From positions 1-49,745 of the IMG/VR virus record IMGVR_UViG_3300031857_024897: a DNA stretch of 49,745 nucleotides. One strand, given 5' to 3'. The stretch comes from a virus (Duplodnaviria; Heunggongvirae; Uroviricota; Caudoviricetes). The position numbers and the translations under genes are program-made. Position 1 is the stretch's first letter; every line of letters starts with the position of its first letter. Shown here one piece after another: positions 5,620 to 5,827 of the stretch. The notes under the pieces are model-generated. The model had not been told where the DNA came from and searched no databases. It saw only the letters and a list, made by a program, of their open reading frames with translations.

Positions 5620-5635
5620 CAATATGTCAAAGAAC
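5620..5635 (-). promoter_or_regulatory. boxA-like antitermination element GTTCTTTGACATATTG
   Basis: Matches rrn boxA core GYTCTTT(A/G)A; sits at the head of the tRNA array directly after the terminator. Confidence 0.6.
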
Positions 5636-5666
5636 AAAAAACCCCGGATTTTAGTCCAGGGTTTTT
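5636..5666 (-). terminator. Attenuator terminator hairpin upstream of the tRNA array
   Basis: AAAAACCCTGGA-CTAAAA-TCCGGGGTTTTTT: GC stem followed by a U tract. Confidence 0.8.
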
Positions 5667-5700
5667 ATTATATCTATAAAATTATATAAATAACCTGAAC

Positions 5701-5778
5701 TTATTTAATAAATAACGATGCAAACCAGCTAATCGCCGGGTTAGAATCTTGCGTATGTTTAAATAAGTTAAAGTTCAT
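5701..5778 (-). CDS. Putative leader peptide MNFNLFKHTQDSNPAISWFASLFIK (25 aa)
   Basis: Manually translated ATG..TAA; overlaps an 11-bp inverted repeat and precedes the terminator. Confidence 0.65.
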   Translation of the reverse strand: MNFNLFKHTQDSNPAISWFASLFIK

Positions 5779-5798
5779 AATATCTTATATATATCTCA

Positions 5799-5827
5799 AT
5801 GTTAGTAAAAAGTTTATAATAAGTCAA
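5799..5827 (-). promoter_or_regulatory. Sigma70-like promoter TTGACT-N17-TAACAT upstream of the leader peptide
   Basis: -35/-10 hexamers with 17-nt spacing; ATG 20 nt downstream. Confidence 0.55.

Follow-up and report, generated by a model that had tools for sequence, protein, structure and literature searches.

What governs the expression of the transfer RNA (tRNA) genes that a phage carries? Such genes are usually discussed as a way to fit codon usage or to escape host defences that cleave tRNAs, and to our knowledge the control of their expression is largely unknown. We address the question at the head of a tRNA array in IMG/VR virus record IMGVR_UViG_3300031857_024897, where the window analysed is a 49.7-kb stretch (49,745 nucleotides, nt) of a 103-kb contig that, given a CheckV completeness estimate of 34%, is a fragment of a very large phage; it is an uncultured giant phage of Bacteroidota. 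An original prediction, made from the letters of the window alone, had placed here a trp/his-type attenuator controlling a 20-tRNA operon. We consider it likely that a ribosome-mediated leader-peptide transcription attenuator does stand at the head of this array, as a member of a family that is widespread among Bacteroidota phages; the whole layout recurs with covariation in relatives.

On the minus strand, the window presents in order a promoter, a 25-codon open reading frame (ORF), helix 1:2, an antiterminator helix 2:3, a GC hairpin with a tract of six U residues, a boxA motif and the tRNA genes (Table 1). The RNA elements named in the original prediction are all found: the 25-codon leader is open, the 11-base-pair (bp) core of helix 1:2 joins AACTTATTTAA (5769-5759) to its exact reverse complement TTAAATAAGTT (5708-5698), and the proposed antiterminator pairing of GTTCAGG (5700-5694) with CCTGGAC (5660-5654) contains one G-U pair and lies within a full helix 2:3 of 8 bp (AGUUCAGG, 5701-5694, with CCUGGACU, 5660-5653). 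Helix 1:2 grows to an imperfect hairpin of ~30 bp around the whole ORF. The terminator, a stem of 12 pairs including an A/U extension and then T6, has a stability of -11 kcal/mol and is the only strong minus-strand terminator within positions 2000-9000. The 1:2 duplex reaches -13.2 kcal/mol (0 of 17 foreign partners as good) and the 2:3 duplex -11.3 kcal/mol (shuffle P = 0.003), while the fold of positions 5625-5800 as a whole gives z = -4.07, with none of 200 shuffles as good.

Could such an arrangement have arisen by chance in an AT-rich divergent intergenic region, around a bidirectional terminator that serves other transcripts? The leader region does lie between divergent genes, with a holin gene on the plus strand; the 11-bp repeat taken alone is unremarkable (P ~0.12 for 301 nt of local composition), and a 25-codon ORF by itself is common, there being 119 ORFs of at least 20 codons in 9 kb. 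Against these points stand the z of the fold and the presence of the whole module, with covariation, at 25 other sites, and we regard a chance origin, disfavoured by these comparative data, as very improbable.

A blastn search against 50,697 phage records returned no close relatives of the phage and matches at the level of tRNAs only, IMG/VR searches with the neighbouring proteins of 405 and 248 amino acids (aa) gave no match, and neither did an exact-sequence search for the window terminator. Among the 65 loci returned by a holin-gene search, two were informative (L015 and L016; loci are cited by our own handles) and two partly so (L011 and L012). In L015 and L016, the holin gene lies antisense inside tRNA arrays and adjoins an attenuator cassette, and on the tRNA strand the motif CTTTGACATATTGG comes after a small ORF and a U-tailed GC hairpin, as in the window. 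An IMG/VR pattern scan for the hairpin tail plus the motif yielded 19 loci, and a scan for the boxA 17-mer alone more than 100 more. After removal of duplicates, 26 sites (the window and 25 further IMG/VR sites) show the order promoter, ORF, terminator, boxA, and they include 15 distinct terminator-arm sequences. Site selection made use of neither the ORF, nor helix 2:3, nor helix 1:2, nor the geometry, and it is on these features that the comparative tests bear.

Covariation and conservation of the leader in relatives were the checks that the original prediction had called for, and both came out in its favour, the ORF and helices 2:3 and 1:2 being recovered by tests that did not select for them. 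Segment 2 lies at the 3' end of the ORF and changes along with the 5' arm of the terminator: GTTCAGG with CCTGGAC in the window is replaced elsewhere by GGTTCGG with CCGAACC, GAGAGGG with CCCTCT, GGAGATGG with CCATCTCC, TGAATGGGG with CCCCATTCA, or AGTTCAGGG with CCCTGGACT. Own 2:3 pairs average -11.8 kcal/mol versus -6.8 for foreign arms (n = 518), and at 20 of the 26 sites, across the 15 arm classes, no foreign arm matches the own pair. Segment 2 is kept as AAGTTCAGG in L288 and L301, the nearest relatives, and the RNAalifold consensus of the window with these two is helix 2:3. In subfamily A, all 56 cells (100%) of this helix pair, with 2 compensatory changes. Complementarity upstream of the terminator is likewise stronger when boxA follows (mean z -2.9, 83% below -2) than at terminators without boxA (mean z -1.0, 32% below -2; Mann-Whitney P = 1e-5). 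As to helix 1:2, segment 2 pairs with codons 2-6 when leaders are folded alone, and the mean energy is -9.45 kcal/mol for own pairs and -5.96 for foreign ones.

The geometry points the same way. Across 23 sites at which the ORF was assigned automatically, the end of segment 2 falls anywhere from 26 nt ahead of the last base of the stop codon to 8 nt past it, and a gap of 22-40 nt separates the stop codon from the terminator stem that follows; in the window, segment 2 ends 8 nt past the stop codon and the gap is 39 nt. With such spacings, segment 2 falls inside the footprint of a terminating ribosome, with the stem outside it.

An ATG ORF of 22-45 codons is present at all 26 boxA-linked sites versus 4.0 expected by chance in composition-matched random sequence (criterion: an ATG ORF of at least 20 codons that ends 15-70 nt before the terminator stem). 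The window ORF shares its KH and WF motifs with L288, L301 and L305. In the best-sampled subfamily, every indel of the ORF is in frame, synonymous variation is seen at conserved Pro, Cys, Gln and Lys codons, and the median ratio of nonsynonymous to synonymous substitution rates (dN/dS) is 0.37, a pairwise value from very short ORFs that is indicative only; together these suggest moderate purifying selection on the leader ORF. These results bear on a translation-independent RNA switch, in which a protein, an uncharged tRNA or a small molecule would stabilise the antiterminator and the ORF would be incidental. Alternative helices can indeed switch on their own, and T-box elements, which sense tRNA charging without a ribosome, provide a precedent. 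Yet the constant presence of the ORF, its in-frame indels and its dN/dS, together with the fixed place of segment 2 relative to the stop codon, would be left without a reason, and Rfam finds no leader or riboswitch family at threshold in the window and no T-box hit. The best leader score is that of His_leader (RF00514), at 25.8 bits against a 49-bit cutoff (E = 0.7), and no other cis-regulatory Rfam family came near threshold; membership in His_leader was rejected, the sub-threshold match being treated as terminator-driven. We hold a switch of this kind to be quite improbable.

The original prediction had described codons of the leader as GC-rich. NCG codons make up 4 of 23 in the window leader versus 1.7% in the genes of the phage, whereas overall codon rarity is not significant (P = 0.12); across the family, leaders lean to rare codons (5 of 12 at P<0.05). 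Part of the NCG enrichment may be forced by the apical hairpin (Table 1), possibly an RNA polymerase pause hairpin, which has a covarying mini-hairpin at the matching place in subfamily A leaders. A 6-bp hairpin within the ORF (codons Gln-Phe-x-Asn-Cys, A1 columns 54-69; L073, L076-L079, L081, L082 and L271) covaries by paired synonymous changes, from CAA/TTG to CAG/CTG, with 3 pairs changed on both sides; it is a candidate pause hairpin for RNA polymerase, and its window counterpart is CCGGC/GCUGG at the matching place.

The promoter elements TTGACT (5827-5822) and TAACAT (5804-5799), 17 nt apart, are where the original prediction had put them; its class is what changes, since the second is part of a Bacteroidota -7 box, TAACATTG, and not a sigma-70 -10 element. 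TAnnTTTG is the Bacteroidota -7 element, and a box of this type lies 12-20 nt upstream of each of tRNA-Gln, tRNA-Phe, tRNA-Leu and tRNA-Glu; the putative leader promoter, TTGACT-N17-TAACATTG, is of the same type as these tRNA promoters. Its -7 element aligns with TAACTTTG of relatives, and the stretch aactttttacTAACATTG aligns base for base with aacttttacTAACTTTG of L073 and L081, with transcription predicted to start near 5790. A sigma-70 reading was rejected in favour of the -33/-7 type: the site ranks 9 of 12 in a generic scan, and promoter-like sites from that scan are no commoner than in shuffled sequence.

What follows the terminator appears to be borrowed from the host. The exact 17-mer GTTCTTTGACATATTGG, with one copy in the window, occurs in more than 120 genomes, mostly of Bacteroidota, and lies between tRNA-Ala and 23S rRNA in all six rrn loci scanned with Rfam (L089, L092, L113, L127, L131 and L142); in host genomes, it is often preceded by a small hairpin. 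Because other phage sites have a TAnnTTTG promoter 4-39 nt upstream of boxA and a tRNA ~10 nt downstream, boxA seems to act as a 5'-leader RNA element of tRNA transcripts. A tRNA follows within 60 nt of boxA at 21 of the 26 sites (none within 60 nt at L016, L067, L226 and L264). In the window, as in L070, L074, L080 and L226, the terminator abuts boxA: the U tract runs directly into it and no promoter fits between, so boxA RNA would be made only by read-through of the terminator, which argues for a conditional terminator. On read-through RNA, boxA probably loads Nus antitermination factors. An alternative identity for the post-terminator motif, that of a tRNA promoter, was rejected: its distance from the U tract varies between 2 and 16 nt, the -7 positions lack TA, and the sequence is exactly that of the rrn spacer boxA. 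A boxA-like match with one mismatch outside the window (G000:C1:70481-70496) was set aside as chance; it falls within a coding region rich in Cys, away from any tRNA or terminator. Two further observations concern the 17-mer in bacterial genomes. In L095, an Algoriphagus metagenome-assembled genome (MAG), it stands a few nt before a tRNA gene outside the rrn spacer, and some exact matches come from MAGs with labels outside Bacteroidota (Nostoc, Methylotenera, Lachnospiraceae, candidate phyla), which may be binning contaminants.

If the leader senses decoding, its codons should bear some relation to the tRNAs behind it. In 18 cassettes with usable arrays, compared at the amino-acid level only, a leader contains on average a fraction of 0.962 of the amino-acid types in its own array, versus 0.83 when arrays are permuted (P<5e-5), coverage is complete (1.00) in 15 of the 18, and a thinned set of 11 cassettes still gives P = 1.5e-4. 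Two phages with two cassettes each (L070 and L271) are particularly instructive, as each leader matches its own array and not the swapped one: the first leader type, rich in K, H, S, Q, F, C, W, Y, P and R, precedes tRNAs for those residues, the second (MKNL...E[MR]V) precedes Ala, Asp, Glu, Gly, Leu, Asn and Thr tRNAs, and swapping leader-array pairs cuts the match to ~45% (hand count). This matching fits a sensor of the charged-tRNA supply for the cassette's own tRNAs.

The second leader type also forms a subfamily of its own, with leaders of 22-24 aa of the form MKNL...E[MR]V before the stop and a terminator arm of the CCCATCTCC type, in L070, L271, L080 and L226 (the two cassette sites of L070 are 11064 and 12623, those of L271 4337 and 733); the arrays that it precedes carry the same seven tRNA types, Ala to Thr, listed above. 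At L077 (site 6862), L312, L229 and L316 (site 7891), small ORFs ending in ...TEMV have a copy of the terminator 3' arm just before the stop, and a TAnnTTTG promoter sits between the terminator and the boxA-tRNA unit; the same switch design therefore exists with a built-in bypass.

The leader could instead be a micropeptide gene in its own right, ended by a terminator of its own; the peptide would be functional in itself and the tRNAs would be transcribed separately. Moderate purifying selection, a conserved QF.NCWYPR core in one subfamily and the existence of internal promoters would all agree with this. Such a gene, however, leaves unexplained the covarying 1:2 and 2:3 helices, the fusion of boxA to the U tract, which leaves no space for a promoter, and the leader composition that tracks each array, and the peptides differ widely between subfamilies while the RNA layout is constant. 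We judge a micropeptide gene improbable, and an attenuator remains the better account of the family, for which we regard the evidence as strong.

How, then, would the attenuator work? Transcription would start near 5790. With no ribosome on the leader, segments 1 and 2 would pair, the 3:4 terminator would form and RNA polymerase would stop at 5636. A ribosome that reaches the stop codon fast would cover segment 2 with its footprint, and the terminator would again form. A ribosome stalled earlier in the leader for want of a scarce charged tRNA would hold segment 1 apart and leave segment 2 free to pair with the 5' arm of the terminator, letting the polymerase read through. The read-through RNA would at once carry the host rrn boxA, Nus factors would probably load, and the modified polymerase would cross ~3 kb of untranslated, structured tRNA RNA without Rho-dependent or intrinsic termination. 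The net effect would be a feedback loop from slow decoding to more phage tRNA: as ribosomes slow down, tRNA output from the phage genes would probably rise. From the sequence, we infer the steps of termination, translation, stalling and Nus loading, as well as the physiological trigger.

Folding of the transcript, also proposed in the original prediction, agrees with much of this scheme: beyond the z of the real fold, masked folds give the 1:2 plus 3:4 terminator form without a ribosome, form 2:3 before segment 4 exists when the A site is at codons 6-12 or 21, and form the terminator, with segment 2 covered, when the ribosome is at the stop codon. The most complete version of the reading is a self-regulating tRNA supply unit in Bacteroidota phages, in which leader codons sample each tRNA of the block, a stall anywhere turns the terminator off, and boxA-bearing read-through would get a Nus-modified, Rho-resistant polymerase through the array, replacing tRNAs depleted by host shut-off or by anticodon-nuclease defences; we offer it tentatively, at slightly under even chances.

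Several observations weigh against the attenuator reading, some at the level of the model and others at the level of this copy. The pattern that defined the family required the terminator and boxA, and these two features are thus not independent observations. In the masked folds, the terminator always wins at equilibrium, so the switch would have to depend on kinetics, like that of trp. For a ribosome placed at codons 15-18, the program folds helix 1:2 back around it; this is physically doubtful, and the effective sensor range is therefore uncertain. In the window itself, the -7 box TAACATTG departs from consensus, and the leader lacks 14 nt found in L288 and L301 (their codons Gly-Gln-Asp-Cys-Arg), its TAA now standing directly 5' of segment 2, unlike in those relatives. 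The downstream array comprises 19 tRNAs on this strand for 18 amino acids, with no Tyr or Glu; the leader covers 13 of these 18 types (0.72), among the lowest values in the family, and is without Val, Arg, Cys and Gly though the array encodes tRNAs for them. The claim that the 14 leader amino acids are all represented in the array holds, as all 14 residue types are among the 18 covered, but the match is weak (P ~0.08). The general charged-tRNA sensor proposed originally fits the family and finds a weak match in the window.

Internal promoters add to these points. A complete TTG-N19-TACCTTTG promoter lies between boxA and tRNA-Gln, and TAnnTTTG boxes are also found ahead of tRNA-Phe, tRNA-Leu and a small ORF at 5392, much as the original prediction had cautioned. 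The attenuator therefore seems to modulate the array rather than to be its sole control, and its more likely part is to supplement a basal supply with processive transcripts that bear boxA; the claim that it controls a 20-tRNA operon goes too far, and the array has 19 tRNAs and not 20.

The main rival draws on exactly these features: the family would be a real attenuator, and the window copy a partly decayed relic that has lost most of its regulatory weight, with internal promoters driving the tRNAs. The 14 missing nt and the stop moved to just before segment 2, an array coverage of 0.72 where 15 of 18 cassettes reach 1.00, the weakened promoter with its TAACATTG box, and the full promoter 14 nt before tRNA-Gln, with a boxA-to-tRNA distance of 75 nt versus 7-28 nt in relatives, can all be read in this way. 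Decay is harder to reconcile with three helices that are intact and strong, with a boxA exact at 17 of 17 positions, with an ORF that is open and keeps its KH and WF motifs, and with a segment 2 still placed inside the footprint of a terminating ribosome, and some relatives (L228 and L305) likewise have a promoter after the terminator. We consider a decayed copy unlikely, though less so than any of the other rivals.

Table 1. Features at the head of the tRNA array and beside it, in window positions.
Feature	Position	Strand	Remark
-33 promoter element TTGACT	5827-5822	minus	TTGAC(A/T) or TTGATT at equal spacing in relatives
-7 promoter element TAACATTG	5804-5797	minus	Bacteroidota TAnnTTTG type, one deviation
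Segment 1	5779-5759	minus	Start codon to codon 7; perfect 11-nt core 5769-5759
Leader ORF, peptide MNFNLFKHTQDSNPAISWFASLFIK	5778-5701	minus	25 codons + TAA; ATG at 5778, TAA 5703-5701
Apical hairpin CCGGC-GAUUA-GCUGG	5739-5725	minus	From the fold; in sensor loop of ORF
Segment 2	5708-5693	minus	5708-5698 pairs segment 1; 5701-5694 pairs terminator 5' arm; overlaps stop 5703-5701
Intrinsic terminator	5666-5636	minus	Segment 3 5666-5655, loop 5654-5649, segment 4 5648-5637, U tract 5641-5636
boxA GTTCTTTGACATATTGG	5635-5619	minus	Identical 17/17 to Bacteroidota rrn 16S-23S spacer boxA; abuts U tract
Internal promoter, -7 box TACCTTTG	5565-5558	minus	TTG 19 nt upstream; 14 nt before tRNA-Gln; would bypass attenuator
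tRNA-Gln(UUG)	5544-5471	minus	First of 19 downstream tRNAs (to 2494); 75 nt after boxA
tRNA-Ser(UGA)	4270-4356	minus	Rfam or relaxed ARAGORN only
tRNA-Ala(UGC)	3893-3962	minus	Rfam or relaxed ARAGORN only
tRNA-Cys(GCA)	3554-3625	minus	Rfam or relaxed ARAGORN only
Holin gene, 66 aa	5886-6086	plus	Phage_holin_10 (PF23987) family match; many phage relatives

The three tRNA genes found by Rfam or relaxed ARAGORN were missed by default ARAGORN because their acceptor or D stems are mismatched. Within the array, a second leader-like ORF (5392-5303, minus strand, peptide MKKNAKLYLVSYRIEFGCMWFGSPHIKGC) is found 25 nt behind a promoter box TATCTTTG (5425-5418), with tRNA-His 33 nt farther on. This ORF includes TGGTTCGGT, which is the segment-2 motif in one leader subfamily, but has neither terminator nor boxA. 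Its peptide contains Val, Arg, Cys, Gly, Tyr, Glu and Met, all of them missing from the first leader (Met start codon aside), such that the two peptides together use all 20 amino acids. It may be the relic of a second cassette; as a second leader of the L070/L074 type it was rejected, there being no convincing alignment to the leaders of those loci and no terminator.

Farther from the leader, a strong and probably bidirectional terminator (6089-6117) lies behind the plus-strand holin gene. A perfect 11-bp inverted repeat (5807-5817 with 5866-5876) flanks the -33 box of the leader in the divergent holin/leader promoter region and could be an operator or chance (similar repeats have a local P ~0.12). 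At the other end of the window, ~30 head-to-tail ORFs of 130-155 aa on the minus strand (36612-49689) make up a 13-kb tandem array of paralogues.

If the attenuator reading is true, decoding speed would feed back directly on tRNA synthesis, and the family would provide a clear case both of ribosome-mediated attenuation in Bacteroidota and of a phage that borrows the rrn boxA of its host. The cassettes are a ready test system—short, with obvious mutations to make, and with natural variants with and without bypass promoters—and their layout could serve to recognise regulated tRNA blocks by sequence in metagenomic phages.

The predicted cassette can be compared with several known systems. Phage antitermination (lambda N/nut, Q/qut, HK022 put) relies on a cis-acting RNA and host Nus factors to pass terminators, and the phage element would likewise be a cis-acting RNA signal for passing a terminator; unlike in those systems, no boxB, N, Q or put-like element was identified, and a translated leader and a host rrn boxA are found instead. 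T-box riboswitches also link tRNA charging to the choice between terminator and antiterminator, as we propose here. They bind uncharged tRNA directly, possess a specifier loop and the T-box sequence, are without an ORF, and control aminoacyl-tRNA synthetase and amino-acid genes, chiefly in Firmicutes; the phage element shows none of these features and has no Rfam match to them. With the boxA of rRNA operons, the NusB-NusE site within boxB-boxA-boxC, the phage element shares the 17-mer of the Bacteroidota 16S-23S spacer, and at other phage sites boxA lies between promoter and tRNA, as a leader boxA does; unlike in rrn, it stands directly behind an intrinsic terminator and ahead of tRNA genes, and would be made only after read-through.

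The closest likeness is to the attenuators of amino-acid operons. A full-text literature search of incomplete coverage gave no account of an attenuator upstream of tRNA genes, whether of phages or of bacteria. As in the trpL, hisL, thrL, leuL, pheL and ilvGMEDA leaders of E. coli and Salmonella, there is a short 5'-leader ORF, here predicted to be translated, and there are three mutually exclusive helices (1:2, 2:3 and 3:4), of which the last is an intrinsic terminator; with segment 2 placed at the stop codon, the position of the ribosome would pick the fold, and the terminator is the more stable fold, making the choice a kinetic one. Unlike those leaders, the element is borne by a phage, has a Bacteroidota promoter and a boxA after the terminator, and by sequence falls in no Rfam leader family. 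It has no run of a single codon and samples many amino acids once or twice, matching a set of tRNAs, and the genes that it would regulate are tRNAs, not biosynthetic enzymes. Attenuation of the trp type applied to tRNA genes would thus be a new use of a known mechanism.

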